Shown: piece by piece, positions 7,887 through 36,592 of the stretch
Layout of the letters: every line of letters begins with the position of its first letter
Numbering within the stretch: position 1 is the stretch's first letter
Sequence record: OL631257.1
Length of the DNA stretch: 64,000 bases
Source of the DNA: Escherichia phage ECCR664
Reading direction: 5' to 3' (one strand)
Program-made: the position numbers and the translations under genes
Notes under the pieces: model-generated
Told to the model about the DNA's origin: nothing
Database searches by the model: none
Seen by the model: the letters and a program-made list of their open reading frames with translations, nothing else

Positions 7887-8138
7887 CTATTTTAAACTTT
7901 TGCGAAATTTGCGTTTTTCTTGACGAATCTGACGTTTAGTCGGACGTACAGCAAATTTAACGAAGTCCACTTTGCCGTGAGGAAACTTTTCAGATGCTTC
8001 ACAGTCCATCATTAGTTCCCATCCTTCCAGAATAAGAGCTTTCCATTGTGTAGTTGATGCAAATTCGTATGTTGATGGTTTAAACACAGTTGAGTACATA
8101 TTATCCTCTGAAATCAGCTTCAAAAACTTTCTCGTCAT
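7887..8138 (-). CDS. small protein with basic C-terminal VRPTKRQ tail (family member 1)
   Basis: 83 aa; C-terminus FAVRPTKRQIRQEKRKFRKSLK shared with two small ORFs near 35.9-36.6 kb. Confidence 0.35.
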   Translation of the reverse strand: MTRKFLKLISEDNMYSTVFKPSTYEFASTTQWKALILEGWELMMDCEASEKFPHGKVDFVKFAVRPTKRQIRQEKRKFRKSLK

Positions 8139-8292
8139 TAATAAATGCTTTAACTAATGCATTGTTCACTTCAGCAAGTTGTACCGCAACCCACTCGATT
8201 TCTTCACGATCACCTGATAACATGATATCTTTAGTGAACATCTCGCCGCTTTTAAACCAGCCAATAAAAGTAACTTTAGTTAATTTGCCCAT
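8101..8292 (-). CDS. dmd: Dmd (discriminator of mRNA degradation; antitoxin against RnlA/LsoA)
   Basis: FIGWFK ... MFTKDI ... EVNNALVKAFI.D.KV matches T4 Dmd (60 aa) as recalled; start taken at the internal Met. Confidence 0.8.
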   Translation of the reverse strand: MGKLTKVTFIGWFKSGEMFTKDIMLSGDREEIEWVAVQLAEVNNALVKAFINDEKVFEADFRG

Positions 8293-8605
8293 ATTTCCTC
8301 GCAAAATGCCCATTCAGCGTGATAAACTGTAGCACCTTTAGTATCATTCATTTGAACTACGTCTACCGGAGAAATTACTCGATAGAGACGTGGTTCACCT
8401 CCATAAGAGCGTGCTGCTCGTCCTGCATAAATCTTTGCTAAACCGATATCTTCAGTAAAGAATACACGATTCAAGTTTTTCTTACGTCCAATTTCAGACA
8501 GAACTCCTGTTTCTTCAGGAGGACAAAGCATATTTTCGATGTTAGCTGAACTACTTGAACCATGATAAAAATCTTAAATTCTGCTTTACAATCGATGGTT
8601 TTCAT
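8280..8605 (-). CDS. small Tpt1/KptA-like (ADP-ribosyltransferase-fold) protein, apparent frameshift
   Basis: ATG at 8605 (MKTIDCKAEFK) shifts into ...DFYHGSSSSANIEN ... RVFFTEDIGLAKIYAGRAARSYG ... PRLYRV, resembling the KptA C-terminal block (LYHGT ... HLSADEATARKVGARHG ... PVILTV). Not in T4 between dmd and 41 as I recall. Confidence 0.35.
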
Positions 8606-8631
8606 TTTGTTCTCCAGTAGTTGATAGGTCT

Positions 8632-8660
8632 ATAATAACACAACTACTGGAGAAGTAAAC
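8632..8660 (-). promoter_or_regulatory. T4 early-type promoter
   Basis: Minus strand GTTTAC - 17 nt - TATTAT, then the ATG at 8605. Confidence 0.45.
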
Positions 8661-9068
8661 TTAAAAATGTAATTTAGATATATCTGCGTTGATTTCGTTT
8701 TGGTTTGCGTCGTATGCAATTAAACGAACCGCTTTAGATGGGTCATTCAATGCATAGAAATGATGGAACATTGCTCGAACGATATCGCCATTTACAAGTT
8801 CTACCTGGATAGGAGAACCTTTTTCGAGTTGGAAATGTTCATAAGCTTTGATGGTTCGCAGATAATCAAGTTTTTGATTTCCGGCTCCAACAATTTGTAC
8901 GATACGTTTGCCCATGTTTTCCATACGAGATACAATAGTTTTAGGAGCAAGAATAACGTAGGTTGCCAGCGGAGAAACTACTTCAACAGTTGTGTTTTCG
9001 GTGATTGCAGTAAAATTGCTTGAGACATATTCATAATGTTTTCCTCTTGGTTGGTGTAAGTACATCAT
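8661..9068 (-). CDS. hypothetical protein (135 aa)
   Basis: ORF between dmd and gene 41; beta-rich; vague Sm/Hfq-like look (VELVNGDIVRAMF); start uncertain. Confidence 0.3.
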   Translation of the reverse strand: MMYLHQPRGKHYEYVSSNFTAITENTTVEVVSPLATYVILAPKTIVSRMENMGKRIVQIVGAGNQKLDYLRTIKAYEHFQLEKGSPIQVELVNGDIVRAMFHHFYALNDPSKAVRLIAYDANQNEINADISKLHF

Positions 9069-9087
9069 ATCATGCCTAGAGGAAGAT

Positions 9088-9116
9088 GTAAACCCCGAAA
9101 GGAGACCGAAGTCTCC
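9088..9116. terminator. stem-loop terminator candidate downstream of gene 41 (possibly bidirectional)
   Basis: Hairpin GGAGAC-CGAA-GTCTCC at 9101..9116; T-run on the plus side (TTTTATTAAAATTTT) and UUUCGGGGUUU on the minus side. Confidence 0.4.
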
Positions 9117-9121
9117 TTTTA

Positions 9122-10560
9122 TTAAAATTTTAACTCATTGGCTAAGCTATCTAGGTCAGCACGTGTTGCTTTGGCTTTACCTACGCGTTCCGTACGATTC
9201 ACCTCTGCCTGACGCATCTGAGCACCTGCGTTTTCATTTACTGTGTTAGGTGTGTTCATGCCTTCTTGCTCAATCTCAACCCATTTCTGATTGCCTTTAC
9301 GTACACCCATCAAGAACTTGTTCCACTTATTCTTATCACCATATCGTGATTTGATTTGTTTGATAAGTTGTTGTTCAGCTTGTGCAAGTTCTTCAGTTTC
9401 AATTACAGCCAACATGAAATCTGCCGTTGCTGGTAAACCTGCTGATTCTGCAATATCGCTCATGTTCATGTCTGAAGCATCCCATGCTGCACGTCCTACT
9501 TGAGCTGCAGTCCATAGAACTGTTTCAGATTCTACTGCTAATGCACGAAGTTCTTCTGCGATAGCTTTAACTAATGTGTAACTATTTTCAGTGTAAACTC
9601 TGATACGACAAGACCCACAAATACCTAAGTAATCGACTATAATTACAGACGGCACAAAGTTCTTCTTGAGTTTCAATTCATTAAGCAATGCACGGAATGT
9701 ATTAGCATTAGCTCCGCCAGTAGGATACTGTTTGACTACTAAACGTCCTAATGTGGATTTTGAACGCCATTTTTCCATCTTGGCTTTATATTCAGCATAA
9801 GATACGTTACCATCATCGATATCATCAAGTGATACGTCAAGCATGTTTGCATCTATACGCTTAGCACAAACTTCTTCAGCCATTTCCATGGAAATATAAA
9901 GAACATTATGTCCTGTTTGAAGATAATCTGCAGCAAGTGAACAAAGGCCTAAAGATTTACCAACGTTAACACCTGCCATTAAAACATTCAGTGTACCGGT
10001 TTCAGCACCACCTTTGGTGATTTTATTCAGAATGTTTAATTTGAACGGGACCTTACGTGCTTTATTTAGATAAGAAAGCCAGCGTGCTTCATAGTCTTCC
10101 ATCCAGTCATGACCAACATAACTATCAAACGAAATTGAAAGTGCTTGACGCATAATATCAGGAATAGCTCCTACGTCAGGCATTTTCTTGTTACGTTGTT
10201 CTGGAGGTAGTTCAGCATTAGACTGAATCTCAATGATTTTGGATGTAGCATTATACATCGCTTTTGCTGGACATATTTCTCAGTTTCTTTAACCAACCAT
10301 TCGTGGTCTTCAGGAGTGTCAGCCAATTTTTCAATTAGGTCTGAAGTTCCTTTATATTCGGCTTCAGTTAAAGAACTGTTATCTAAAGCCACCTTTAATG
10401 CATTGATAGATGGCATTGCATTATATTCGTTAACGTGGCTCTTTATAATTTTAAAGACATTTTTGCCGGTCCACGCTCAAAATACTCAGAATCCATATAA
10501 GGCCAGACCTTAGAAAAATAAGCCTGGTCGTATACGAGATGAGACAAAATAATTTCTACC
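9122..10560 (-). CDS. 41: replicative DNA helicase (DnaB-like), gene 41; two apparent frameshifts
   Basis: Fragments 9122..10258 (378 aa), 10171..10416 and 10417..10560 together match T4 gp41 almost residue-for-residue as recalled (e.g. PDVGAIPDIMRQALSISFDSYVGHDW, Walker A GVNVGKS). Confidence 0.9.
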
Positions 10561-10903
10561 ACGATAACTCCTTAAAAGAATTTAAATTTTTCTTGGTTCG
10601 TTCATTAAAAGCTTGTTGTACCTGCATTGTAACACATTTTTCAACATGTGGTGCAAGTTCTGCTTTTCTGTCCTGGTCAAGAACTGCAAAGTCCATTACG
10701 ATTTTACCATCAACCCAGTCTAGTTTTGTAATATAGACTATATGATGGGAACCGTCTTCAAGTGTAATCAGAATCTCTTGAATGACATTTTCCATTGCTG
10801 AACGGATAATTTTAAGAGATTCATTAAACACTCGTTCTTTGCGAATGTCTTCCCTTCCGAAGAAGGGGATTCATCAACGATTTCTAGATTTAAATCATCG
10901 AGA
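10556..10903 (-). CDS. 40: gene 40-like protein (head vertex assembly chaperone position)
   Basis: ORF 10556..10831 (91 aa) plus upstream extension to the uvsX stop; assigned by position between 41 and uvsX. Confidence 0.4.
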
Positions 10904-12074
10904 TTATTCATCGAAATCTTCCATTTCGTCAAGGTCGTTTTCAATATCTGCTGCAGACGGAGCATCAGAAGCTTTAACCGGAACTTTAGTTGTTGCTTTG
11001 CAATTAATAAGGTCGTTAACAGCGTCATCAACTTCTTTAATAGAAGAGATAGCACCTAGTTTATATTTAGTTTCAATTGCATCTCGGAAAGGTTTGTGTT
11101 TAAACAACGGCCCCCAGAATTCTACGCAATCAGTAGCTTTAGCACGCCATGATTTCTCTTCACGAATCATTTCACCTGTTTCTTCGTCAAGGAATTCACG
11201 AGCATACCAACCAGCTTTAGGTTTAACCACAAAACCAATTTCAGTTGCCATTTCTAACAAGCCACTGAATGGGTCAATACCGCCATCAAAATTAACCGTG
11301 ATTGGGAAAGTAGATTTCTCTTTAACTGTACGAGATTTTTCTGCTTTCAACGTGAAGTCATAACCGGTCAATTCTGTACCTTCTTTAACCTGACGTTTAG
11401 AGATAAAAATACTGTGTTAGCAGAATAAAGAATACCTGTACCACCGCCCATAATCTCTTTAGGATATAGTCCGCCGATTTCCATTGCTGTATGGTTGATT
11501 GCAACACATGGAATATCTTTAATAGTCAGATACGGGGTTACAATACGGAAAAGAGATTTAAGTGCCTTAGCACGAGACATATCACCTACGACTTTCTCGT
11601 TCAATGCATCTTCGGTTTCTTTCTTAGATGCAGTGTTACCGATTGAATCGATAAAGATAATAACTTTATCACCGCGTTCAATCGCGTCAAGCTGATTAGT
11701 CATATCAACTTTAAGTTGTTCGACGGACTGAATTGGTGTATGAACTACACGGTCTAAATCAACACCCATTGAACGGAAGTAAGATTCTGAAGCACCGAAT
11801 TCTGAGTCATAGAACAAACAGATTGCATCTTTATATTTCTTCATATACGCTGCAACCATAGTTAGTCCAAACAATGTTTTAAAATGTTTAGAAGGTGCAG
11901 CAAAATAGTCAAGCCTGATTGCAATCCTGCATTCAGAGCACCACCTAGTGCAATATTCAACATCGGAATACGAGTAGGGACTTCATCACGATTATTAAAC
12001 AGCTTAGACTTAGTCAAGTCTGCAGTCATTTTAGAAGTAGAAGCTTTAATCAGACGAGATTTTAAATCAGACAT
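10904..12074 (-). CDS. uvsX: UvsX recombinase (RecA-like); two apparent frameshifts
   Basis: Three fragments (10904..11371, 11368..11874, 11862..12074) together give about 390 aa; C-terminal block FTLKAEKSRTVKEKS.FPITVNFDGGIDPFSGLLEMATEIGFVVKPK matches T4 UvsX as recalled. Confidence 0.9.
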
Positions 12075-12173
12075 TGTATTTTTCCATAGGCATCATTATA
12101 TTTTACTCATGTTTAAAAGATAAGATGATTATATACTAAGAGTTATACAGCATTTAAAACTTTAAACAGGCTC

Positions 12174-12722
12174 TTAACGAGCCCATTTGATAATTTCTGT
12201 AATCAAATTATTACGTTCGCTTGCATTAAATCCTATAACTTTGTTAGCACCATCATGATTAAGTAATTGATACGTTTGGATTTTGTTATGAATTGCAAAC
12301 TCTTCAAAATGTGAAATGACTGTATTAAAACCGAATGAAGACAAAGTAATAAGATCGTCTTCAAAACTTTCAGTCATTTCGTTACGTGTTAAAATAATTG
12401 TGAACACATCATGGTTTTGGCAAAGACGAATATAATCCTGTTCATAAACGTCAAGAACCGAGTCCGCATCTTGTCGAATACGTCCATAAACCCAGTTACT
12501 AATATATCCACGGTCTAACAGATAAATCTTAGTAGGGTCTAAATAATTCAACATCGTTTCGAAACAGCCAACTTCATTTCGAGACTTAACATCGAAACGT
12601 CCATCAACTGTTCGTTTAGGGAAATCAATCTTTACATATCTTTCACTAATTTCCATTATGTCATTAATGAAAGTTGTTTTACCAGCATTATCCGGTCCGT
12701 CTACTAAAATAATTTTAGCCAT
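12174..12722 (-). CDS. P-loop kinase, thymidylate/dNMP-kinase-like
   Basis: 182 aa; Walker A GPDNAGKTT; LLDRGYISNWVYG resembles the TMPK DRY..S..AYQ lid motif. Sits where T4 has beta-gt. Confidence 0.55.
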   Translation of the reverse strand: MAKIILVDGPDNAGKTTFINDIMEISERYVKIDFPKRTVDGRFDVKSRNEVGCFETMLNYLDPTKIYLLDRGYISNWVYGRIRQDADSVLDVYEQDYIRLCQNHDVFTIILTRNEMTESFEDDLITLSSFGFNTVISHFEEFAIHNKIQTYQLLNHDGANKVIGFNASERNNLITEIIKWAR

Positions 12723-12723
12723 T

Positions 12724-13623
12724 TTATTCCTCGATTACGACATCTTCGTATTTAGGTATATTATACGGTGAAGAAATTAAAGCATTAAAGTAGATGAACT
12801 CACCAAGACCTGGATGGAATACTTCTTCAGGATTTTCGAAATATTGAATCTTCGGACGTCCTTTAAGAATTTGATAGTACTCAGTTTTAGTTGGATTAAA
12901 AATTCGAATCAGCGCTTCTTCGGGATACTTATTTCTGTCGAAACTATTATTTGGATCAGTTATATAAAGCGGTTGACCTAATTGAATTGCGCATTCAACC
13001 ACTTGTTCAAAACGATAGCATGGGTCACTAATTCGAAATGGATGAAAAATACCATCTAGATGAATAGGAGCCAAATCACCTACAAGACGCTGCATGACGG
13101 AAGGACGTATAACTTTCTGCGTTACGATAATCTTATTACCATCTGCACCTGCGTTAACCAGCACTTCTTTTTGACGTTCATTCAACACAGTAGTTTGAAG
13201 TGAACGATTAACCGACAACATATCGGTTTTTAAGAATTCGTCAATATAAAAACGTGGTTTATTAGGGTCTGCAGTGATATTGAAATTGAATTCCACATCA
13301 AAAGCGCCGTCATATCCGGTGATATCTGTGATTAGAAAATCACAATCATAATAAGCAATTAATGAATCAACCACAAATTCATTTTCAGACCAGAAATATT
13401 TACGAGTGTTATACGCGTTATCTTTATACCATAATGGAACAAACTTAAATTCTGGGAAAAGACGTTCACATTCTTTAATATCGGATGCATTACGTGGATA
13501 TGTAATCACATCACCTGGATTAGCACGGTGCAAATGAAGTTGGAAGTTGCCATCCTTAAGGATAGCATACTGTCCAGTTTCATAAGACCGCATACTCAAG
13601 ATTGGTACGCGGAAAATAGCCAT
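12724..13623 (-). CDS. hypothetical protein; positional candidate for the hmC-DNA glycosyltransferase
   Basis: 299 aa; no similarity to T4 beta-gt as recalled; immediately downstream of gene 42 and coupled to the P-loop kinase (1-nt gap). Confidence 0.3.
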   Translation of the reverse strand: MAIFRVPILSMRSYETGQYAILKDGNFQLHLHRANPGDVITYPRNASDIKECERLFPEFKFVPLWYKDNAYNTRKYFWSENEFVVDSLIAYYDCDFLITDITGYDGAFDVEFNFNITADPNKPRFYIDEFLKTDMLSVNRSLQTTVLNERQKEVLVNAGADGNKIIVTQKVIRPSVMQRLVGDLAPIHLDGIFHPFRISDPCYRFEQVVECAIQLGQPLYITDPNNSFDRNKYPEEALIRIFNPTKTEYYQILKGRPKIQYFENPEEVFHPGLGEFIYFNALISSPYNIPKYEDVVIEE

Positions 13624-14339
13624 TAGTCAAGGAATCCTTTAACATAATCAAAATCACGTTCAAACACATGGGCACTTACCATGGTATGAGTATAATCACC
13701 AACTTCTACACCACATTCGTTAGCGATATAATGAAGTAATTTTCCTTGGAGATAAAAATCCAACTGCATAACAACAGCACAGTTCTGAGAACGCATATGA
13801 CAGTGGGTATAAAGCTTACCATCACGAATATAATAAGTCACTGAGTCAGTACATGGATATTCAAGTGTTTCGTCCGAATCAAGCAAAGCCTGATCAGAAC
13901 TTTCTAGAATTTGGAACACAACTCTTCGAGAGTTAGGTTTCTCTTTAAGTTCTTTTAGAAGAGCTGGTAATTGGGCCACAATGCGAGGACCGTAGAAAGT
14001 GTTGAAGTTCGCCGGCAAAACATCTGATTTTGGTTTAGAAATAAATTTAGCGACATTAGGATATGCCTTAAACGCTTCTTCTGCGTTGGTACCACCAGAA
14101 ATCATAAACTTCCAGAAGTCTTCGGCATATTCATAAGAGATGCGGTTAATACGTGGGTCGGTCATTTTGAATGATGATGGAGTGTCAACAACTACTGTCA
14201 TGGACCCGATTTCATTACAACGTCCAATACGAGAATCAGTTACGAATTCGGGGTTTTCTAAAATTTCACGATTGACTGCTTTAAATGCGGCTTGAAAATC
14301 TGCGGCTTTGATATATTTCATTGTGTTATGTTTTCCCAT
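13623..14339 (-). CDS. 42: dCMP hydroxymethylase (thymidylate-synthase fold), gene 42 homolog
   Basis: 238 aa; TS-family core YPCTDSVTYYIRDGKLYTHCHMRSQNCAVVMQLDFYLQ with catalytic Cys in PC and Asp at the position that is Asn in thymidylate synthase and Asp in T4 gp42 (cytosine specificity). Diverged from T4 gp42. Confidence 0.75.
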   Translation of the reverse strand: MGKHNTMKYIKAADFQAAFKAVNREILENPEFVTDSRIGRCNEIGSMTVVVDTPSSFKMTDPRINRISYEYAEDFWKFMISGGTNAEEAFKAYPNVAKFISKPKSDVLPANFNTFYGPRIVAQLPALLKELKEKPNSRRVVFQILESSDQALLDSDETLEYPCTDSVTYYIRDGKLYTHCHMRSQNCAVVMQLDFYLQGKLLHYIANECGVEVGDYTHTMVSAHVFERDFDYVKGFLD

Positions 14340-14380
14340 GTTTACCTCAATACAATTTATTATATACTCAATTCGTAAAG

Positions 14381-14633
14381 CTTATTTGAATTTCTTGGCA
14401 ATGTTGATATAACGTAAAGCTTCAGAATCTATACTTCCAAGAACACTATGAAGGAATGCATCAGTGTAGTATTCCAATTGAACAGGTTCTTTAATCACTT
14501 TAGCCGCTTTGGTTTCAAACAGGCCCATAAGGGCCTTTTAAGAATTTGTTCGTTAGTGTTCAGTTTTATAGTCAAAATCTCTTCATTAAGTTTATAATTA
14601 AAAGTTTTTCTAGAAATCATTCCGGGTACCTCA
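14381..14633 (-). CDS. small hypothetical protein, apparent frameshift
   Basis: Not in ORF track; MISRKTFNYKLNEEILTIKLNTNEQILK then frame switch at a GGCCCTTATGGGCC palindrome. Confidence 0.25.
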
Positions 14634-14651
14634 AAGCGTCATCAGAGTTAG

Positions 14652-15774
14652 TTATATCAATAATAGATATAGAGTTTTCTGATAACCCATTTTTAGATAA
14701 CTGACGTTTATAATATCTTTCACAATATGTACACGTCGTCCCGCAGATTTCATTAGCACAATCGAAATCTGGATGTCTGAACCACCTTTTTCTAAAAAGC
14801 CATCTAACAAAGAGGTTTCAATATTTACTGTATGTGAAAACTCAGTCTCATTTTCAAGAGTGAAAATAGTCTCTAAAGGCTTCCACAGTTCTAACAAATT
14901 ACCTTCAAACTTTTCAGAAGCGTATGCTTCAAGAACTTTCAAAATGTAGTCGGTGCTACCTGTACGTCCTGAAACTTTGAATTGAGTGATACCAATATCA
15001 TTATAAAGTTTCAAATCTTGAGGACGAACAAAACGAGTTCTCAACCAGTTAAATGGGTCTGTATCACGAGCTTTAATACAGTGCTGCATAGGATATCCGT
15101 TTAAGGATTTAGCATCATCAGCTGTAACATCAGTACTATGGAAAATATAGCAAGAGTCACGATAGCTACAATGTGTTGTATACCCTTTACCAGCATTAGA
15201 ACAGAACTCATTTACAAGAACTTCAAATATTATATTGTTCTTATTGCAAAACTCTGCTGCACGCTTCAGGAAAGAAACTGAACGGTTCTTATGAATTCCG
15301 CAGCAGACTTTTTTGATGTTATATTGGTCGTGCAAGTATTTGATTTGAGTTACAGCATCAACATGTAGAATTGTTGAAACTTCAATCTCAATGTCTTTAT
15401 TGACTTCACGAACAATTTCCATAACAACAGGGTTAGCGATAGTAATACGCCATACGCCTATTGACCAAAGATACTGAACATAATCCTGAATAGCTTTCTT
15501 CTTCCACTCAACTAGTTCTCTTTTGAACCAGGATTTATCGTGTTGAGTGTATAGTTAAAGCAAATACCTAATTCGTTACAACGTTTAACGTAGTCTTCTA
15601 ACATCTTTTGTCAACGTCAGGAAGCCTAAAATCAGGTCTGGCTGCTACAAAAGCCATTTCTCTTGTAGAACCATATACTTCGTTTATCAAGCTATTAGGA
15701 TAGGTTTTATTGAGCTCTACGATTTTATCAAGAAGAGCTAAATCAAAATTCGTTCCGATTTTAAAAGTATTCAT
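14652..15774 (-). CDS. peptidase-U32-family protein (RlhA/TrhP/UbiU-like TIM-barrel fold), apparent frameshift
   Basis: ORF 14652..15422 plus N-terminal extension from ATG at 15774. Blocks align to U32 proteins by eye: ELGICFNYTLNTI (YVALNTL), ANPVVMEIVREVNKDIEIEVSTI (DLGLLRLIRE..ELHAST), EVLVNEFCSNAGKGYTTHCSYRDSC (Cys-rich FVHGALC..SGRC region). Confidence 0.5.
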
Positions 15775-15828
15775 TTTTGCATCTCGCGTTAATTGATGCG
15801 ATGGTTTTTGCAGGTCTTACTTAAATTA

Positions 15829-16230
15829 TTATAGATTCGGTTTATACGATTTAAATGTTTCGAATTCGCCTTTATTCATAAGAGCTTTGAATTCGTCAGG
15901 ACGCATAGCTTTGTCGTCGATAATCCAATCATATACTGGTTTATGTGTTAGCAAATTATGGTACTTCAAACCAATGTTTTCCAAGTTCTGAATCAGACTT
16001 GGGAGAATGTCAATTGCTATACGACCAGGACCTACCGACTTCATACCACGAGCCGTGTAAAGCGTTATGGTATGCCCTGCATCATACAGGGCATTAATGG
16101 CGGACACCATTTCGACGTCTGGTTTGAAGTTCACGTAATCACGATTGTTATTCCACTCTGTTATACAATCATCGACATCAAAACAAAGATTAAGCATGTT
16201 TTCTACACGGTGCATTAGATTCGTTCCCAT
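15829..16230 (-). CDS. HAD-superfamily phosphatase (KdsC/GmhB-like small sugar-phosphate phosphatase)
   Basis: 133 aa; HAD motif I CFDVDDCITEW (DxDx[T/V]); TARG motif; true start may be the internal Met at about 16197. Confidence 0.6.
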   Translation of the reverse strand: MGTNLMHRVENMLNLCFDVDDCITEWNNNRDYVNFKPDVEMVSAINALYDAGHTITLYTARGMKSVGPGRIAIDILPSLIQNLENIGLKYHNLLTHKPVYDWIIDDKAMRPDEFKALMNKGEFETFKSYKPNL

Positions 16231-16285
16231 TGATGAGTGATATCGCCACCGATTGGACGATAGGAAACACCAGTTTCTTTATCAG

Positions 16286-17104: not shown

Positions 17105-17130
17105 AATAAAGTGGCCGCCAGGATGATAAC

Positions 17131-17900: not shown

Positions 17901-17941
17901 GTTGAAGTCCTCATTGGTAAGTAGGTGTATTGTACACTATT

Positions 17942-24656: not shown

Positions 24657-24664
24657 GTAAACAT

Positions 24665-28099: not shown

Positions 28100-28140
28100 A
28101 TTATTTCCTCATTAGTTAATTCATTCTATCATCCGTTTAT

Positions 28141-28168
28141 AAAGCAAAAAGGAACTCCGAAGAGTTCC
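28141..28168 (-). terminator. rho-independent terminator upstream of gene 47
   Basis: Hairpin GGAACTC-CGAA-GAGTTCC at 28151..28168 followed on the minus strand by UUUUUGCUUU. Confidence 0.6.
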
Positions 28169-28175
28169 TATCCAC

Positions 28176-28349
28176 ATAGTACACCGTACAGAGGCTCATT
28201 TGAACTTTTAAATCGAATGGGCTTGTACGTAATAGTTCCTTCGGCTTTAGCTTTATCATAAGACTCTTTAAAACGTCTCATTCTTTCTGCTTTGCCTTTA
28301 CGGATTTTATCGAAATTTTCAGAAGTCGGGATGTTCGTCATGCATAAGC
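28176..28349 (-). CDS. small hypothetical protein (57 aa)
   Basis: Not in ORF track; MTNIPTSENFDKIRKGKAERMRRFKESYDKAKAEGTITYKPIRFKSSNEPLYGVLCG. Confidence 0.25.
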
Positions 28350-28380
28350 ACCTCTCAGAAAATGCCTAAATCGATTTCTC

Positions 28381-28602
28381 TCATCGTTTCCACCATTTCT
28401 TAACTTGAAATGAATCAACCCACACGAGTTGTTTTGGGTCTGCCTTTACAATAGGCGGACAAATTTCTGTAATAGAACCGTCGTGATATTCCTTTTCAGA
28501 AATTTTAACACAAAGAGGACCTCCCAATTTAAGGGTGAACCCTGCGTTCAGATTCAGACGTTTAAACTTTGTTTGAACTAGCGCCATTAATAATGTCCTC
28601 AA
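28381..28602 (-). CDS. hypothetical protein (73 aa)
   Basis: ORF in the 47-55 gap, where T4 carries alpha-gt. Confidence 0.3.
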   Translation of the reverse strand: MRTLLMALVQTKFKRLNLNAGFTLKLGGPLCVKISEKEYHDGSITEICPPIVKADPKQLVWVDSFQVKKWWKR

Positions 28603-28884
28603 TAGCCTGACGAGTAGTAACCCACTGGATTTTAATTAACTTGTCATTATATGGTTGTCGTAGAATATCCCGAGATTTCTTAATAGCATATTCGTAAGCT
28701 TCGAAGTTGTTTTGAATTGCTGCTTCTTGAGCATGAGCATAAAGTCGATTTAGTTCGAAACGATTCTTTTAAGAATCTTTTCAGATTTTTACGTGCTTCA
28801 GCTTCATTTTTCTTTTGTATTTCTTGTAGCATTTTAGCTACTGCATCTTCTGCTTCTTTATTTTCAATAATCTCGGTAGTCATA

Positions 28885-29639
28885 TTATCTCATTAAATTA
28901 AAATAAAAACGTCCGTCCTCTTCAATACAGAACTCGTACTCAACTGGAGTCCCATTTATTGAAAATGACACGTCATGTGGGTTCAAAGGGTCGATGTCAA
29001 AATTAATTTTAAATTCTCGACCCAACAGTTTTACCAAATAAGGGATTGCTTCGTCAAAAGGTTCTTCTAAGTAGTTAGAGATGTCAATTGTCATCCTCAT
29101 ATAAAAATCCAAACTAGGTGAATCGCTAACAACTTCCTTCTTTTCAGCCCCAGGAGCTTTATAAGCGGATTCTTCATAATGCGTCATTTTATCGTAGATG
29201 TCTTGAATAAACGTTTCATCTACCAACGCTACCATATCATCGTCATGACTGTCGTAGACGTTATGAACGAAGTAACTATATTTCTTTGCAACTTCCTTAC
29301 GTTCTTTTTGATACGTTGGACAAAAGCATTAAAACAAGCTCGAGTTATGTATGCATGTGGGTTATTGTACTTAGTTTCGTCGAAATTATGAAGTCCCTTA
29401 ATAGAGGCTTCAATCCCATCTGCAATCATCTCCTGCTTCCAAGACTGGGTATATCCTGAAAAGTTGAAACGTTTGGACAGGCCTTCGGCGATAAGCATAA
29501 TTGCTAAACCGATGGTATCATTCTGACGAATAATTTTGTTTGGGTCTTTATTATTTAAGAGCTCCTTTTTCCACTCGATTATAGCAGCGAGAAGCTCTTT
29601 ATTATTCACATAGTTATTTTTAGGTTTTTGTTCAGTCAT
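28885..29639 (-). CDS. 55: late-transcription sigma factor, gene 55; apparent frameshift and possible read-through into a downstream small ORF
   Basis: N-terminal ORF ([11 protein letters not shown] ... DPNK ... [54 protein letters not shown] ... AFVQRIKK) and C-terminal ORF ([23 protein letters not shown]...) match T4 gp55 as recalled; the last roughly 70 aa may belong to a separate gene. Confidence 0.8.
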
Positions 29640-29975
29640 AAGTACCTCTTAGCTCAATTCATAGGTCTATTATATCATAATATTTAGAGACCTATCTTAA
29701 AGCACGAGATACTATCGGAGCAAACAATACGCCTGGAATACTTTTTCCATTAAACGTTTGAACTCATGGATATCGATATAAAGCTCAGTAAGACCGGCAT
29801 TATAAAGAAAATCTAAAAGTTCTCATGTGTTTCGTTATAGTCGCCTTCGTTTAATTGAGATACATGAGTTTCCCAAAACCGACACCTTTAACGAATGGAA
29901 AATACGTAACTTTCATAAAGTTGTCGACGTAAAATTCGCCCAGCTTTTCTTCAGTTATACTGATTCGAGTTAATT

Positions 29976-30203
29976 TCATTCTAGTTCCTTTGCCGCTTCA
30001 AGAGCAGCATCCAGCGAATCAAATTGGTCAACGAAATCAATATTCAACGCATCGTCATCCGTAGCATATAACCACCATTGTTTGAATTCGTATTCTAGAA
30101 TAAATCCAAGCCCTTCAATCTGAGAAAGACCTAGACTATTTGTACCAACTTCGTAACCAGCTAGACGCAGGTCATTAATCAAAGCTTCTGTTAATACGCT
30201 CAT
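29976..30203 (-). CDS. hypothetical acidic protein (75 aa)
   Basis: ORF only. Confidence 0.3.
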   Translation of the reverse strand: MSVLTEALINDLRLAGYEVGTNSLGLSQIEGLGFILEYEFKQWWLYATDDDALNIDFVDQFDSLDAALEAAKELE

Positions 30204-30222
30204 TTTACCGCCTTAACAATTT

Positions 30223-30531
30223 TCAGGTCAACGAATTTTTCTTACGTTGATTTTTCATACGACGGATAGTCTTTTCAGAGATTTCATGTTTCTGATAAGC
30301 TTTAGATTCAACACCAAATGCAGCAACGTCAAATTCAGAAAGAATATATTGTACTAGAATTTCACGAATAGAATTACGTCCAATTTTCTGGTCGTGTTTT
30401 TGCATGATTTCATAAAGATGGAATTCCCAGGCGTCAAGAACTTGAGGAGTAACAATATTGCCAGATTCCAGAAGAGCAACAACTTTATCGAAAGCGAAAG
30501 AATTAACTACGTTTTTGATTTTAGTAGACAT
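30223..30531 (-). CDS. hypothetical protein
   Basis: ORF 30223..30579; likely start at the internal ATG 30531 (MSTKIKNVV) downstream of a promoter. Confidence 0.35.
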   Translation of the reverse strand: MSTKIKNVVNSFAFDKVVALLESGNIVTPQVLDAWEFHLYEIMQKHDQKIGRNSIREILVQYILSEFDVAAFGVESKAYQKHEISEKTIRRMKNQRKKNSLT

Positions 30532-30568
30532 ATTATTTTCCTCGGTTATTTTATTATCCAACGAGAGA

Positions 30569-30597
30569 ATTATACTCATCTCTCAAGAGTTTGTATA
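30569..30597 (-). promoter_or_regulatory. early-type promoter
   Basis: Minus strand -10 TATAAT inside a conserved block TTATCCAACGAGAG..TATACTC that recurs at 60400..60453. Confidence 0.4.
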
Positions 30598-31182
30598 TTA
30601 TTTTTAAGCATGAAAAGTAAGTAATTTGTATCACGTGGAGTAATATCAACACCCATATCAAAGATGCCTTTATAGATTGGGTATTTGTTTTCGGTTGTAT
30701 CGAAGCTGAAACTATTTCCATCACAACTAACAGTAATAGCATCTGTTAAAATGTCATACTCAATCCTAACGGTTGAATCGCCAATTTTAACGTCGAGGTG
30801 TTTTTGAATTTGATAAAATCTAATTCTTGGGCCATGATATTTTCCTCATTTTAAGACGATAGGAAGATAATAACATGTCTTCCTATCGTTGTACATTATT
30901 AACCGAACTTTTAGCGCCTTTCCAGCCTTCGTACATAGCTGCACAAGTCAGTAGTACAGCGTGCTGGCATTCTTTGTATTTGTAAATCCAGAACCAGCGT
31001 AAAAGTCTTCGTCCTCAACGCCGTTGAGTTTCATGTTGGCAAAGAATTTGGCACGTTCTTCACGAAGTTGCCATGACACAATATTTTCAGGATTCATTTT
31101 GTGTTCCACGCCCCATTTTCATCGATGAACTTAATCCAGTCATTTACGGACCATTTAGTTGTATCGCCCTTTGGATTAACAT

Positions 31183-31554
31183 TTAAAGTATATAATCCCT
31201 GCTTAAAAGCATTCGTTTAATATTCATAATTTCCTCAACTGTAACGATAACATTCGTTAGCTTTACGTTTGGCTTCAGTATGAGAAGTATTATAATCATA
31301 CTCTTCTTTACTGTAAACATCTTTTTCAACTTACGAACTTCTTTGCGGAGTTGTCGATTCATTTCGTTCTTGACTTCAGAATCAACACCTTTCATACGTT
31401 TCCATTTATCTGAGCGGAAGATGTTTTCAACCATGTCTTTGTGGCTAACACCATCAGGAGCTTTACGCTTACCAAAATAGTCGTAATCGCGAACTTTCAA
31501 ATCTTTACGACGATATGTTTTACCCATAAGTACCTCAGAGGTTGATTGATACAA
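31183..31554 (-). CDS. hypothetical basic protein
   Basis: 123 aa ORF; KR-rich. Confidence 0.3.
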   Translation of the reverse strand: MYQSTSEVLMGKTYRRKDLKVRDYDYFGKRKAPDGVSHKDMVENIFRSDKWKRMKGVDSEVKNEMNRQLRKEVRKLKKMFTVKKSMIIILLILKPNVKLTNVIVTVEEIMNIKRMLLSRDYIL

Positions 31555-31783
31555 TGCGTTTGATAAAATTCACTTCACTTACTGAAAGGTCTTTAAGACC
31601 GATTGATTCTAAACGCTGAGTAAGCGTCAACATCGGGATATAGTCCCAATGAGTTTTATTTGCTTGATAAGTACGAACGCCATTAGCAATTTCAACATGC
31701 AAATCTGAAATGGTAACGAATACCAGACGCTCATCATTAACTTTAAGGGTTAGAACAACTTTCTTTGAATCTAAACTAATCAT
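31535..31783 (-). CDS. hypothetical protein (82 aa)
   Basis: ORF only. Confidence 0.3.
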   Translation of the reverse strand: MISLDSKKVVLTLKVNDERLVFVTISDLHVEIANGVRTYQANKTHWDYIPMLTLTQRLESIGLKDLSVSEVNFIKRIVSINL

Positions 31784-32055
31784 AGTTTAATTTCCTTCGC
31801 GATTGAACAGAAGATACCACGGTCACAAAGCATTTCACCAATTTCTGGATATTTGATTGAACGATACCAAACATCTAGGCTTGAAACTCTGGTTATCCGT
31901 ACTGCATTACCGTTGACAGAATAGTACTGGTCGATATTAATTTCTTTATCTTCAATTGTCATTTTATTTTCCTCTATAGCAGTTTGTTTAATCTTAACAC
32001 ATCTATCGAGGATGTAAACTGTTTTATGAAAATATTTTTGATTTGAGAGGGGCAC
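31780..32055 (-). CDS. hypothetical protein (91 aa)
   Basis: ORF only. Confidence 0.3.
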   Translation of the reverse strand: MPLSNQKYFHKTVYILDRCVKIKQTAIEENKMTIEDKEINIDQYYSVNGNAVRITRVSSLDVWYRSIKYPEIGEMLCDRGIFCSIAKEIKL

Positions 32056-32127
32056 AAGGAGATAGTGAAGTGAAGATTCTAATGGATTATATTAGAAATA
32101 GGATAAAGAAGACCAGGCGGCACCTGG

Positions 32128-32440
32128 TCAATCTTCTATGATATCAGAGTCGTATCCTAATGAAATCAAGGACTTTTTAAACTCTGCAATATTCTTTTGT
32201 TTCTTATCATTTAAAAATATGACAGGATAACGAATATTAAGTGAAGTGAATCCTGCACGTTTAGCAAGAGATACGATTAAAGGACGGTCATATTCAATCT
32301 TACCATTATTAGTGAGGACTTTATAAAATGTATAAGGAGCATTGAGCTCCTTTAAAAGTTTTGTAACAGTATAACATCCTGGACAACGTCCAACTTCTTC
32401 AGGGATGCCATAGATTTCAATCTTGTTCTTTAAGTTCGAG
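32128..32440 (-). CDS. nrdH: glutaredoxin-like protein (NrdH-type)
   Basis: KIEIYGIPEEVGRCPGCYTVTKLL: thioredoxin-fold C-P-G-C motif; upstream of nrdG/nrdD; start not resolved (GTG or shift from the 32417..32752 frame). Confidence 0.5.
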
Positions 32441-32752
32441 TTTTGTTCCACGAGAAATAATTCCTTGGTAAGCCCAATAAGGAGGATTAACAGAATCCTC
32501 ACCAGAGTTTTCTTCAGGAAAATAAACCTGGATAACAAATCCAGATGCATCAAATGTAAAATAAACTGTAGGCAGTTCACCTAACAATTCGGCACGAGCA
32601 TTAATTTCTTCAAGATCTCGTTCACGTCCAGCCCAAAAACTAGGATTTAGACTACATTCATAGAAATAATAGTCATTACCGAACATATCAAAACCCTTCC
32701 AACTCTCTACCACGTACCGCTCAAAACTAATCATAATTAAGCCTTTTATCAA
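32417..32752 (-). CDS. hypothetical protein (111 aa)
   Basis: ORF overlapping the nrdH-like frame; may be fused by an indel. Confidence 0.3.
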   Translation of the reverse strand: MIKGLIMISFERYVVESWKGFDMFGNDYYFYECSLNPSFWAGRERDLEEINARAELLGELPTVYFTFDASGFVIQVYFPEENSGEDSVNPPYWAYQGIISRGTKLELKEQD

Positions 32753-32958
32753 GAACAGAATTCAGTTTGTTAGTAATTTTATCCAGACGCTCATTGAACT
32801 CACTAGAAGATAAGCCCTTTTCTGGAGAAATTAAACTAATCACGAAAAATACACCAGTAAAAGGAATAAGAAAAATAGCTCCAACTGCCATAAACAAAAG
32901 AACGTTACAGTTGTAAGAAAATCAGCTAAACCTTTACGAAATTTATACATATTTACCC

Positions 32959-33530
32959 TTAATTAATTAACCAAGCATTGATAAGCAAACCATATTGCGA
33001 ATAAAATTCTGGACCAAAACGAAAAATCATATCATTTATAGTATCCATAATGTAGTTCAATTTAATCATGTTTCCACACCCCATCGGTATTTGACCAAAG
33101 TCGCTGATTATCTGATCCTCGCCACAGCTTTTTGGTCGGAAGATTTTCTCATACTTCCCATCAATAATAACATCAACATATTTAAGCATTTCTAGTTGTT
33201 TAATATCTTCAAACTTGTATCCTGTCCACAACCAAATGCTTTTATTGGGATAAAGATTTTTGCTGTTTGAACAATGCAATGAATAACATCTCGGTTGTCA
33301 GGATAGAGAGGGTCTCCTCCGGTTATAGTCAATCCTTCTATATAATCATTATTCAAGCATTCAATTAATTGTTCTAGTGTTTCACCGGTGAATGGAATAC
33401 CATTTCTAGCGTTCCATGTTGATTTATTATAACACCCTTCGCATTTATGCAAACAACCTGTAACGAAAAGAACGACCCTGCAACCAGGGCCATTCACAAA
33501 ATCGCAAGGATAAAATCTATCATAATTCAT
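32959..33530 (-). CDS. nrdG: anaerobic ribonucleotide reductase activase NrdG (radical SAM); apparent frameshift
   Basis: MNYDR.YPCDFVNGPGCRVVLFVTGCLHKCEGCYN.STWNARNG ... TGGDPLYP matches T4 NrdG as recalled; second fragment carries WLWTGYKFEDIKQLEMLKYVDVIIDGKYEK. Confidence 0.85.
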
Positions 33531-35343
33531 TGGTGTTTAACCCTATGCATGATTTCTTTATTTTTACCGAGATTAAATCCGCGTTCGTTCGGATTTCCAA
33601 GATAACCGCATGTTCTTCTTATAGTGTTCATCTTTTTAGGATCAGTTTCTCCACAAACTGAACAAACAAATCCGTTTTCAGTAGGAGTCATTTCATGAGT
33701 ACTTCCGCATGTAAAACATTTATCCACTGGCATATTAACACCAAAATAATCTAAATGTTGTGCAGCATAATCCCAGACAGCCTCAAGACCCTTTAAGTTA
33801 TTTTTCATATCAGGAAGTTCAACATAAGAAATGTGACCACCTGTCGCAATGAAATGATATGGCGCTTCACGAGAAATCTTTTCAAACGGAGTAATATTTT
33901 CTTCTACTGAAACGTGGAAACTATTAGTGTACCAGCCTTTATCGGTAACATCTTTTACGCTTCCATATTTTTCTGTATCAAGTTTACAGAAGCGATAACA
34001 AAGGTTTTCAGCAGGAGTAGAATATAAACTAAAAGCAAATCCAGTTCTTTCAGTCCACTGTTTAAGATGAGCATTCATTTTAGTTAAAATTTCTTGCCCA
34101 ATATCACGACCAACAAGAATATTCAATTCATGAATACCAATGTATCCTAAAGACACTGAACTTCTACCGTTTTTAAATAACTCAATTATATCGTCGTCAG
34201 GTTTAAGACGAACCCCGAATGCACCTTCTTGGTAAAGAATAGGAGCAACAGTCGCTTTAACTCCTTTTAAGGAACTAATTCTACACATCAAAGCTTCAAA
34301 ACATAAATCCATTCGTTCATTGAACAATTCGATAAATTTCTGTTCATTGAATTGTGTTCCAATATAAGAATCTAATGCGATACGAGGAAGATTCAGTGTT
34401 ACAACACCGAGATTATTACGTCCATCAAGAATTTCATTACCGGTTGAATCTTTCCATACGCTCAAGAAACTACGACAACCCATTGGAGAAACAGGAATAG
34501 ATGAGCCAGTGATAGCTTTATTGTTCTTAGCTGAAATAATATCAGGATACATTCTTTTGCTTGCACACTCTAGAGCGAGTTGCTTAATATCATAGTTCGG
34601 ATCATCTTTATAAAGATTAACACCTTCTTCAACAAACATAACAAGTTTAGGAAAAATAGGAGTTATCCCATCACGTCCAAGACCTTTAATGCGGTTTTTA
34701 AGAATTGCCTTCTGAATCATTCGTTCAGTCCAATCAGTTCCTGTTCCAAATGTTATAGTAACAAAAGGAGTTTGTCCGTTTGAACTAAAAAGAGTATTTA
34801 CTTCATATTCATAAGCTTGGAATGCATCGTATACGTCTTTTTCTGTTTTAGATTGAGCATAATTCAACGCATCAGCGATTTGCCATTTTCTGCATCTTCA
34901 ACATGTTTAGCGTATGTACGTTTAACATAAGGAGAAAGAACTTTATCGACATTTGCAAATGTAGTTCCGCCATACTGATGTGAAGCAACTTGTGCAGTAA
35001 TTTGTGCCATAATTGCAGTAGCAACACCAATCGATTTAGGCGTTTCGATTTGAGCATTGCCTAATTTAAATCCATTCTCAAGCATCCCCTTTAAATCGAC
35101 TAAACAGCAATTAGTAAACGGAAGAGCAGGAGAATAATCAATATCATGCATGTGGATAATTCCACTTTCATGCGCATTCATAATAAAAGACGGGACCATA
35201 TTTTTGGCAATGTGCTTAGACACAATACCAGCCATAAGGTCCCGTTGAGTTGGAAAAACACGAGAATCTTTATTAGCATTCTCGTTCAAAAGATCTTTAT
35301 TAGTTTTATAAATTAATCCTTCAATTTCTTTTTCAATTTTCAT
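33527..35343 (-). CDS. nrdD: anaerobic ribonucleoside-triphosphate reductase NrdD; one apparent frameshift, no intron
   Basis: Fragments 34864..35343 and 33527..34867 total about 605 aa; C-terminal Cys cluster and glycyl-radical region RRTCGYLG; frame junction near 34865. Confidence 0.9.
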
Positions 35344-35344
35344 T

Positions 35345-35812
35345 TTAAACTCTTTCTAAGCTGCTTTTGAATGAAGCTATTAATTGTGTTTTAGTATCAG
35401 ATTCATTATATTCAAATCCTCTTTGAAGCATCTCAGTCATCATTTCCTCTTTACCTAGTCTTGAGAACTCTTTAGTTTTGTCTGGAACAAAATTAGGATG
35501 GATATTATTATCAGAATAATCTTGTTTCAAATAAGCAAGAAGAGCTTCAAGCCATTCGAGGTAATCAACGTTTTGACCTTTAAGACCAGAACGGTTGAAC
35601 TTATGCTTCATTTGACCTTCTGCTGCATTGCACAGGTTACATAGTAAACCACGAACCTTACCAGCTTTTGGCCCGTTTAATTCATGGTCGTGGTCAAGAT
35701 GGTTACCTTGAACATCAGGGTCTAATTCACGGTGGCAAATAGGACACTTACCGTTCTGTGCATCATAAAATTTTTGTTTTTCTTCTTTATATTTTGCGCC
35801 TGATAATAACAT
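35345..35812 (-). CDS. 49: endonuclease VII (Holliday-junction resolvase), gene 49
   Basis: 155 aa; KEEKQKFYDAQNGKC.IC.REL.PDVQ.NHLDHDHELNGPKAGKVRGLLCNLCNAAEGQMKHKFNRSGLKGQ.VDYLEWLE matches T4 gp49 as recalled. Confidence 0.9.
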   Translation of the reverse strand: MLLSGAKYKEEKQKFYDAQNGKCPICHRELDPDVQGNHLDHDHELNGPKAGKVRGLLCNLCNAAEGQMKHKFNRSGLKGQNVDYLEWLEALLAYLKQDYSDNNIHPNFVPDKTKEFSRLGKEEMMTEMLQRGFEYNESDTKTQLIASFKSSLERV

Positions 35813-35841
35813 GATAAACCCTTACCTTAAATAGATAAGGG

Positions 35842-35849
35842 TATTTATA
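35842..35849 (-). promoter_or_regulatory. T4-type late promoter (TATAAATA) upstream of gene 49
   Basis: Plus tatttata at 35842..35849. Confidence 0.55.
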
Positions 35850-35851
35850 AT

Positions 35852-36030
35852 TTAGTAAACGTTATAAAAGTCACGATGAAAACGTTTATATTGACGAATC
35901 ATTTTCTTAGTAGGACGTGTTACTGAAATAATTGAAGTCCTCATATTTGGATTGTTTGGGGCCCCAATCATAATAAATTTCCAGGATTTTTGCCCATTTT
36001 TCTTTCACCATAAAATAATTCAGTTTTCAT
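35852..36030 (-). CDS. small protein with basic VRPTK tail (family member 2), apparent frameshift
   Basis: Not in ORF track; MKTELFYGERKMGKNPGN ... ISVTRPTKKMIRQYKRFHRDFYNVY. Confidence 0.3.
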
Positions 36031-36039
36031 AATAAACCT

Positions 36040-36453
36040 TTAACTTAAACGTCTTTCTAAATATTCAATGTATTCCGCTGCGGCTTGCATCAGATTACCT
36101 TCATAACCGTCATTATTTTCTTGGGCGGCTAATTTAGCTAAAGCATAAGAAATACGTTCACCTTCGAATTTGCCAAGTTCACTGTCACAAACTACTTGGT
36201 CAATTTCTTCGAGTTCATCTATTGAATGGGATTCCCAGAAGCACCAAAGACAAGTATCACGGTCATAGATGCAAAGTTTCTCACCTGTGTTCAACATCAC
36301 TTCGATAATGCCATGGTCGCCATAACCATCTTCGGTAGTAGTACCAATTACCTTGATGATTGTTCCTTTCTTTAATTCAGGAAACTTGACTTGTAGTTCT
36401 TCATCTTCTTTAACAATCTTGAACCATTTACCGCGAGTTTCAGAAATATTCAT
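36040..36453 (-). CDS. hypothetical protein
   Basis: ORF 36040..36570; likely start MNISETRGKWFKIVKED at 36453; Cys-containing, acidic C-terminus. Confidence 0.35.
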   Translation of the reverse strand: MNISETRGKWFKIVKEDEELQVKFPELKKGTIIKVIGTTTEDGYGDHGIIEVMLNTGEKLCIYDRDTCLWCFWESHSIDELEEIDQVVCDSELGKFEGERISYALAKLAAQENNDGYEGNLMQAAAEYIEYLERRLS

Positions 36454-36454
36454 A

Positions 36455-36592
36455 TCAATATTCTCTATAAAAGTTACGATGAGAACGTTTAGCTTTGCGA
36501 AGCTGACGTTTAGTAGGACGAACTGTAAATGGTTGCCCAGAGAAAAATTCGGATCGGTTTTAATAAGCAAATACCAATCGTGCTTGCCATTT
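36455..36592 (-). CDS. small protein with basic VRPTK tail (family member 3), apparent frameshift
   Basis: Not in ORF track; MASTIGICLLKPIRI ... FSGQPFTVRPTKRQLRKAKRSHRNFYREY. Confidence 0.3.

Follow-up and report, generated by a model that had tools for sequence, protein, structure and literature searches.

The three short genes with a similar basic C-terminal tail in the 64,000-nt window, by which we mean the whole stretch of Escherichia phage ECCR664 DNA analyzed here, are most probably (at about 0.85) paralogs of one small phage family, TifA/Pfam DUF7279, with the tail as its RNA-binding helix. The first copy is then TifA itself, the second and third are minimal-core members, to which we refer as mini-TifAs, and the frameshifts within these two are sequencing errors. 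The function of the tail motif is on record, as this helix is the part of the ToxN inhibitor TifA that binds RNA. In the literature that we searched, we found neither a report of RB69-like phages with three TifA-family members rather than one, nor one of minimal 56-59-aa cores without what we take to be the predicted ToxN-occluding loop.

A shared domain at three loci

The preliminary description had pointed out three dispersed genes with similar basic tails, and this observation is borne out. The genes lie on the minus strand and end at positions 7887, 35852 and 36455 (stop codons 7889-7887, 35854-35852 and 36457-36455). Their products share the tail V/T-RPTK(R/K)..R..KR..R and terminate in FAVRPTKRQIRQEKRKFRKSLK, SVTRPTKKMIRQYKRFHRDFYNVY and FTVRPTKRQLRKAKRSHRNFYREY, respectively, each followed by the stop. 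In a six-frame translation of the 64-kb window, RPTK[RK] occurs exactly three times, and a six-frame HMM search of the window recovers these three loci and no others. At the DNA level, the tails are ~74-76% identical between loci.

The motif had not been recognized in the preliminary description, but it does match a known domain, an outcome which that description had named as refuting its reading. The domain is Pfam PF23945 (DUF7279), and in TifA the motif corresponds to the 'PT motif plus basic cluster'. All three proteins score well above the gathering score of this 53-position profile (24.5 bits): TifA with 71.7 bits (E = 4.7e-20, positions 2-52), the second copy, of the RB69ORF087c type, with 53.7 bits (E = 2e-14, positions 1-53), and the third, of the RB69ORF089c type, with 54.5 bits (E = 1.1e-14, positions 1-53). 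Likewise, PHROG 3272 and PHROG 2375 match one another. W17/W27, R-P-T-K, R46, K49-R50 and R53 are invariant in all three proteins, and the segment R-P-T-K-(R/K)-x-x-R, a Pro-Thr cap followed by a basic cluster (the equivalents of P53, T54, K55, R56 and R59), is present in three of three.

AlphaFold2 (AF2) predicts a beta-beta-beta-alpha core for both a mini form and the window TifA, in agreement with the published AlphaFold description (PMC10853763). According to these models, the three proteins have one small domain in common, and the tail is the helix at its C-terminus. In the ORF087-type model (pLDDT 86.5), the strands span residues 2-9, 15-22 and 31-36 and the helix residues 42-58; in the window TifA model (pLDDT 75.7), the strands span 2-6, 27-33 and 43-49 and the helix 55-69, with a low-confidence excursion at 7-26.

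A word-indexed protein search returned just 19 close relatives. When 1.84 billion representatives were scanned exhaustively with HMMER, only 24 clusters emerged, all of small proteins (41-161 aa) without an informative fused domain, so that domain architecture gives no clue to function. A search of NCBIfam gave no match. Fold searches brought up no informative structural relative: Foldseek against BFVD returned nothing at E <= 0.001, the best hits (E 0.02-0.06) being uncharacterized small proteins of T4-like phages.

TifA beside dmd

The first locus comprises the following features:

7887-8099, minus strand: tifA (gp61.4), 70 codons plus stop; matches PF23945, named by identity to RB69 gp61.4
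7890-7946, minus strand: TifA tail R52-K70, the RNA-binding basic alpha-helix (AF2 helix 55-69; published mutants)
7943-7938, minus strand: helix cap P53/T54
7937-7932, minus strand: K55 and R56
7925-7923, minus strand: R59
8101-8292, minus strand: dmd, which encodes an antitoxin against RnlA/LsoA; precedes tifA directly and is co-operonic with it

The product is identical to RB69 gp61.4 (NP_861728) at 70 of 70 residues. Its ATG at 8099 is preceded by GAGGA, and the dmd stop lies 2 nt earlier. An alternative 83-aa reading frame starting at 8138 was rejected; it overlaps dmd, and its start is neither the annotated nor the published one of tifA. Since dmd lies directly upstream and is co-operonic, this copy falls within the published 'anti-TA island'. 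It is the only one of the three found immediately downstream of dmd, the other two being located around pin, upstream of gene 49.

Gene 61.4 has been identified as tifA, which inhibits ToxN (PMC9391042), and RB69 TifA co-precipitates with ToxN and neutralizes its toxicity (PMC9391042, PMC10853763). The RB69 protein binds RNA through its Pro-Thr-capped basic C-terminal helix and with little sequence specificity; the exchanges P53A/T54A or K55A/R56A/R59A abolish both RNA binding or co-purification and ToxN inhibition (PMC10853763). Furthermore, 16S rRNA is enriched in the ToxN ribonucleoprotein complex, and the basic helix is needed for trapping (PMC10853763). Upon infection, the endoribonuclease ToxN is freed from its toxI RNA antitoxin; TifA then binds ToxN together with RNA, so that the toxin is trapped in an inactive ribonucleoprotein complex and phage transcripts are spared. 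The experimental evidence for this mechanism comes from RB69 TifA, the sequence of which equals that of the window copy (PMC10853763). Accordingly, the suggestion in the preliminary description that the tail is a nucleic-acid-binding module carried by variable heads, perhaps with a tie to the ribosome, stands as far as RNA binding and the link to 16S rRNA are concerned (PMC10853763), but not with regard to the heads, which belong with the tail to one domain.

A loop of TifA was predicted by the authors of that study to occlude the ToxN active site, and the specificity residue 41 lies in the beta2-beta3 loop region (PMC10853763). The AF2 model of the window copy has both elements of this predicted ToxN interface, a protruding loop of ~20 residues and the residue-41 loop. 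In the published screen, six long TifA homologs from other clusters neutralized no tested ToxN or TenpN (PMC10853763); family membership is thus no predictor of the target.

Mini-TifA genes around pin

The second and third copies bracket pin as direct repeats with ~600-bp spacing:

35852-36030, minus strand: mini-TifA of the RB69ORF087c type, located between gene 49 and pin, with 59 aa in its intact form; PF23945, PHROG 3272
35855-35917, minus strand: ORF087-type tail (RPTKKMIRQYKRFHRDFYNVY), one copy of direct repeat D1
36040-36453, minus strand: pin (PinA, inhibitor of the host Lon protease), 137 aa; RB69 annotation, PF10465
36455-36623, minus strand: mini-TifA of the RB69ORF089c / p000y AYN56520 type, with 56 aa in its intact form, directly upstream of pin
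36458-36520, minus strand: ORF089-type tail (RPTKRQLRKAKRSHRNFYREY)
35855-35917 region with 36466-36520: direct repeat D1, tails, 55 nt, 76% identity
35994-36035 (ORF087 type) with 36587-36628 (ORF089 type): direct repeat D2, 42 nt, 74% identity

Both mini genes are frameshifted in the window, as had been noted before. The ORF087-type copy has lost one A of an A6 run at plus-strand position ~36002, and the ORF089-type copy carries 1-nt deletions in an A6 run (~36595) and a T6 run (~36548). Compared with its closest relative, phage p000y, the window shows 152 single-base indels. At 124 of these the window is one base short, in nearly every case within an A/T run of at least 5, and gp43, uvsX, gp41, gp46 and nrdD are each broken over 2-5 frames. 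Judged by this sequence-wide pattern, the frameshifts in both mini genes are homopolymer sequencing errors of the assembly. That they are instead real, reflecting pseudogenes, phase variation, programmed frameshifting or transcriptional slippage at A-runs, might be suggested by the A6 run at homologous K-N-G codons of both mini genes and by its varying length among records, RB69 ORF089c having A7 at this point, where the extra A truncates the gene in the RB69 reference. Yet the same one-base loss recurs at ~124 homopolymers of the window and disrupts essential genes, and the frame is intact in at least 140 other genomes, which makes a biological origin extremely unlikely. As the homopolymer losses are spread genome-wide, neither slippage nor programmed frameshifting at A6 runs was retained as an explanation. 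Given such pervasive errors, any finding of a 'frameshifted gene' from this window should be discounted.

Homopolymer errors aside, both mini-TifAs are real genes, because the ORF087 type is present in 355 records and has dN/dS values of 0.05-0.26 across three genera, and because the 56-aa reading frame of the ORF089 type runs without interruption in at least 140 phage records (about 145), 73 of them at 100% identity. An IMG/VR search for the locus gave 11 loci, which were used for synteny and dN/dS and showed only pin and gene 49 as context. The start of the ORF089-type gene overlaps the end of a 49.1 homolog. In some lineages the mini genes are dispensable: T4 has neither, phiE142 has both, fused to one another, and in the RB69 reference ORF089c is truncated.

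After repair of the reading frames, the two proteins show 38% full-length identity. Moreover, D2 spans the 5' end and start-codon region of both genes, and the heads are therefore homologous as well. The earlier impression that the N-terminal halves differ holds only in part, given the full-length identity, the 42-nt repeat D2 and the fact that all three proteins span PF23945.

These relationships bear on the reading originally put forward, here taken to mean that unrelated heads carry the tail as a portable module for targeting or binding. The case for it comes from pin. The unrelated Pin protein of Tequatrovirus has part of the tail at its C-terminus, in the form ...SFSD(R/Q)(M/K)I(Q/R)QYKRLHQMFYNT, and this stretch lies outside the Pfam PinA domain; at least one transfer of the tail to another head has therefore taken place. 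This graft, however, has no RPTK cap and seems to be a by-product of recombination, and the Pin of the 64-kb window, which matches PF10465 (Inhibitor_I24) over positions 2-136 of 136 (E = 4.7e-49), does not carry the tail. With the alignment of all three window proteins to the whole DUF7279 profile, the direct DNA repeat in the heads of the second and third copies, and the same predicted fold for the mini form and TifA, we regard a portable module as very improbable and retain the paralogy of whole domains.

Possible roles and known relatives

A literature search on DUF7279, RB69ORF087c and RB69ORF089c turned up nothing relevant, and the mini forms were not part of the published homolog panel against ToxN/TenpN. 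From the conserved cap and basic cluster, we infer that they may also bind RNA through their helix. What sets them apart from TifA is the surface. In the AF2 comparison they are without its ~20-residue beta1-beta2 excursion, which we take to be the predicted ToxN-occluding loop of TifA, and their beta2-beta3 loop is unrelated in sequence to that of TifA. This divergent sheet and loop surface would engage a partner different from ToxN, the likeliest one being another host RNase toxin or defense effector, and the mini-TifA-pin-mini-TifA block would then constitute a second counter-defense cassette. As a tentative reading, it is possible that the mini-TifAs are stripped-down RNA-tethering inhibitors of non-ToxN RNase toxins or defense effectors, that they form with Pin a second, direct-repeat-bracketed counter-defense cassette, and that the repeats drive gain, loss and fusion, as phiE142 and T4 Pin would illustrate.

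Alternatively, the mini-TifAs might act on ToxN just as TifA does, as redundant or back-up inhibitors. They keep the Pro-Thr cap and the three basic residues needed for ToxN inhibition by TifA, and RB69-type tifA seems to be missing from about half of the Mosigvirus records, which nevertheless keep the mini genes (TifA at >=95% identity in 68 records, the ORF089 type in ~145); in p000y, for instance, the interval between dmd and imm.1 contains no tifA. We nevertheless consider a shared target quite unlikely, in view of the missing excursion, the unrelated loop in the region of TifA residue 41 and the specificity of the published TifA-ToxN pairing, in which the six long homologs failed on all tested toxins (PMC10853763).

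Another scenario makes the mini-TifAs general RNA- or ribosome-binding early proteins, such as modulators of translation or mRNA stability, with no part in counter-defense. TifA's RNA binding with little sequence specificity and its association with 16S rRNA fit this idea (PMC10853763), as does the fact that the mini forms comprise little beyond the RNA-binding core. Their genes also lie in the early-gene region, with sigma-70-like promoter matches upstream (36701-36673 and 36650-36622), in promoter and terminator scans that did not rise above shuffled expectation. Still, several lineages have lost or fused the mini genes with no evident harm, a patchiness expected of accessory or counter-defense genes more than of core regulators. 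The pairing of a conserved helix and a variable loop also recalls the arms-race pattern reported for TifA, and we deem such a general role unlikely. Should the tentative counter-defense reading be true and the mini forms neutralize other RNase toxins, the principle of 'trap the toxin on RNA' would extend beyond ToxIN, and the pin neighborhood would be a second anti-defense locus in T4-like phages. In addition, the putative repeat-mediated deletions and fusions in phiE142 and T4 Pin would provide an example of paralogous tails reshaping accessory loci.

Among known systems, TifA (T4/RB69 gp61.4; DUF7279) is the closest, and the copy beside dmd is TifA. The two mini-TifAs share with it the predicted beta-beta-beta-alpha core, the invariant beta2 Trp, the R/K-P-T-K cap, the basic helix and the match to PF23945. 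They differ in length (56-59 aa versus 70-100 aa), in the absence of the ~20-residue excursion or a C-terminal extension, in their beta2-beta3 loop and in their position around pin, upstream of gene 49, instead of beside dmd. Dmd (T4 gp61.5) resembles TifA in being a small early phage protein directed against a host RNase toxin and in being co-operonic with tifA, but it is unrelated in sequence and fold; it is a protein antitoxin mimic that inhibits RnlA/LsoA by direct protein-protein contact, not by RNA tethering. PinA (Inhibitor_I24) adjoins the mini-TifAs and in Tequatrovirus carries a partial tail at its C-terminus, yet its domain, PF10465, is unrelated and the window Pin has no tail. Lastly, in arginine-rich alpha-helical RNA-binding motifs, such as lambda N and the HIV Rev/Tat ARM peptides, a short solvent-exposed basic helix likewise confers RNA affinity. 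Unlike these, the TifA helix is packed on the beta-sheet of a folded domain and has low sequence specificity, and the likeness implies no homology.

A shared tail in three members of the TifA family

The window belongs to an RB69-like Mosigvirus: its segment 35800-36800 is 99.5% identical to p000y and 97.5% identical to RB69, and its segment 7700-8400 is 97.3% identical to RB69. Three minus-strand ORFs, with stops at 7887, 35852 and 36455, end in a similar basic motif, two of them on either side of the Lon inhibitor gene pin.

Genes with the shared tail, and pin (tail, last ~20 codons)
7887-8099 (-), copy 1, tifA (gene 61.4); tail AVRPTKRQIRQEKRKFRKSLK
35852-36030 (-), copy 2, RB69ORF087c type; tail VTRPTKKMIRQYKRFHRDFYNVY; repaired gene 59 aa, MKTELFYGERKNGQKSWKFIMIGAPNNPNMRTSIISVTRPTKKMIRQYKRFHRDFYNVY
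36040-36453 (-), pin
36455-36623 (-), copy 3, p000y AYN56520 / RB69ORF089c type; tail TVRPTKRQLRKAKRSHRNFYREY; repaired gene 56 aa, MQVKLLYRLLKNGKHDWYLLIKTDPNFFSGQPFTVRPTKRQLRKAKRSHRNFYREY

A six-frame translation of the window contains exactly three RPTK[RK] matches, a six-frame HMM search of the window found no fourth tail copy, and the tails are 74-76% identical at the DNA level. Judged from the sequence, the tail reported in the preliminary description is thus confirmed as real, and a chance match is excluded.

The same description set the tail on differing N-terminal heads and did not recognize the motif. The heads do differ, but they are not unrelated, since all three proteins match the 53-position profile of DUF7279 (PF23945), the TifA family, from end to end (E = 2e-14 for copy 2, 1.1e-14 for copy 3 and 4.7e-20 for copy 1). 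Their PHROG assignments are 3272 and 2375, two groups with reciprocal cross-hits. Full-length alignment of copies 2 and 3 gives 38% identity, and their genes share, besides a 55-nt tail repeat, a direct repeat of 42 nt (74% identical) at their 5' ends. The R-P-T-K cap, a tryptophan of strand 2 and a number of basic positions do not vary among the three proteins. Several distant DUF7279 members (P0023, P0026, P0029, P0031 and P0037) carry a second conserved C-terminal motif, (E/N)SWEGIHCD(I/V)xG(L/M), after the basic helix, which is absent from all three window copies.

The tail as the RNA-binding helix of TifA

Copy 1, located 2 nt downstream of dmd and preceded by a GAGGA ribosome-binding site, is identical to RB69 gp61.4 at 70 of 70 residues. 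The name tifA was given to gene 61.4 after amplification of dmd-tifA was found to let T4 escape ToxIN abortive infection, and RB69 TifA is the stronger ToxN inhibitor (PMC9391042). TifA is predicted to form a three-stranded sheet followed by a C-terminal basic helix with a conserved Pro-Thr cap, and binds RNA with a KD of 0.36-2.3 uM (Guegler et al. 2023; PMC10853763). The substitutions P53A/T54A or K55A/R56A/R59A abolish RNA co-purification, ToxN neutralization and ToxN co-immunoprecipitation alike, and ToxN and TifA together form a high-molecular-weight RNP in which 16S rRNA is enriched (PMC10853763). All five substituted residues lie in the RPTKR..R stretch of the shared tail (window 7943-7923). 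The early suggestion of a nucleic-acid-binding module, even one associated with ribosomes, was therefore on target. The motif itself is the known RNA-binding helix of TifA, already described and catalogued under DUF7279.

Homopolymer under-calling and the intact genes

Two of the three genes had been noted as frameshifted. In an alignment of window segment 35800-36800 to RB69 and p000y, an A6 run is one A short in the gene ending at 35852, and the gene ending at 36455 has lost one A from an A6 run and one T from a T6 run. The frameshifts are thus present in the window, but they are assembly artefacts: among 152 single-base indels between the whole window and p000y, the base is absent from the window in 124, with few exceptions within A/T runs of at least 5 (e.g. 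at 9121, 10266, 11408, 11906, 20623, 34890 and 35369), and the three indels fit this pattern. The genes for gp43 DNA polymerase, UvsX, gp41 helicase, gp46 and NrdD are each broken into 2-5 reading frames, which no viable phage could tolerate; the assembly therefore under-calls homopolymers systematically. Any frameshifted or missing ORF in the window should consequently be presumed artefactual until the phage is re-sequenced.

Both small genes are genuine protein-coding genes, since the 56-aa ORF is intact in at least 140 phage records (100% identical in 73) and 355 records spanning Mosigvirus, Tequatrovirus and Dhakavirus carry the 59-aa type, whose dN/dS is 0.05-0.26. In the RB69 reference (L001 1257-1373), ORF089c has an A7 run where p000y and 140 or more further genomes have A6; for this reason its annotation is a 38-aa fragment with a TTG start. 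Either a genuine lesion or an early sequencing error in the reference could explain the extra A. The RB69ORF040c homolog (8280-8605, -), directly upstream of dmd and inside the published 'anti-TA island', is likewise interrupted, through loss of a homopolymer base at ~8572; for its intact 105-aa form, we found no Pfam match and no functional annotation.

Minimal paralogs around pin

Copies 2 and 3 bracket pin, whose product matches PF10465 (E = 4.7e-49), as direct repeats ~600 bp apart, while Dhakavirus-type genomes have a single mini gene immediately upstream of gene 49. Between the ORF087-type stop and the start of gene 49 lies an inverted repeat, ACCCTTA...TAAGGGT (35815-35850, -), presumably the hairpin reported to regulate T4 gene 49 translation. 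The ATK47 annotation lists it as a terminator.

Members of the family are missing or fused in some lineages. Although p000y is the closest relative across most of the window, it lacks tifA, with a gap of only ~70 bp between dmd and imm.1 (L005 24333-24961 versus window 7826-8101). RB69-type TifA is found in only 68 records, compared to ~145 with the ORF089-type gene, so that it is a variable accessory gene, present in about half of the Mosigvirus records. In phiE142 (L017 2974-3168 versus window 35852-36623), a single hybrid gene joins an ORF089-type head to an ORF087-type 3' end (...HRNFYNVY); the crossover falls within ACTTTTATA, common to both tails, and removed pin together with the greater part of the ORF087-type gene, so that the paralogous tails serve as substrates for recombination. 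Tequatrovirus Pin proteins (T4 pin, L006 1898-2383; L013 ~2580-3264) end, outside the Pfam PinA domain, in a partial tail copy, ...SFSDQKIRQYKRLHQMFYNT, with the pattern SFSD(R/Q)(M/K)I(Q/R)QYKRLHQMFYNT, and in some Tequatroviruses a complete mini-TifA follows Pin directly. In T4 this mini gene is gone, lost between two ~51-bp repeats, and the classic 161-aa T4 Pin therefore carries a remnant of a TifA-family helix.

The AlphaFold2 model of the 59-aa form (cluster representative P0002; pLDDT 86.5) has β-strands at 2-9, 15-22 and 31-36 and a helix at 42-58; that of window TifA (pLDDT 75.7) has strands at 2-6, 27-33 and 43-49, a helix at 55-69 and a low-confidence excursion at 7-26. Exactly this excursion is missing from the mini forms in the alignment. 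We take it to be the protruding, lower-confidence loop of ~20 residues that, by prediction, covers part of the ToxN active site with its tip (PMC10853763). The β2-β3 loop, where specificity residue 41 of TifA lies (PMC10853763), also differs in the mini forms and varies more among orthologs than any other part. Of the residues that TifA requires, copies 2 and 3 retain the PT cap as well as all three basic ones. From these features, we infer that they are probably minimal RNA-binding cores with a different partner specificity. Two alternatives are also viable: the mini-TifAs may be back-up ToxN inhibitors or general RNA/ribosome binders. The published neutralization panel comprises only long TifA orthologs of 73-100 aa, and the 56-59 aa forms fall outside it; we found no mention of them as paralogs in the searchable literature.

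The novelty is confined to these two uncharacterized minimal paralogs around pin. Lon inhibitors such as T7 Gp4.5 reportedly counter toxin-antitoxin-mediated abortive infection, and by analogy a counter-defense cassette centered on pin is plausible.
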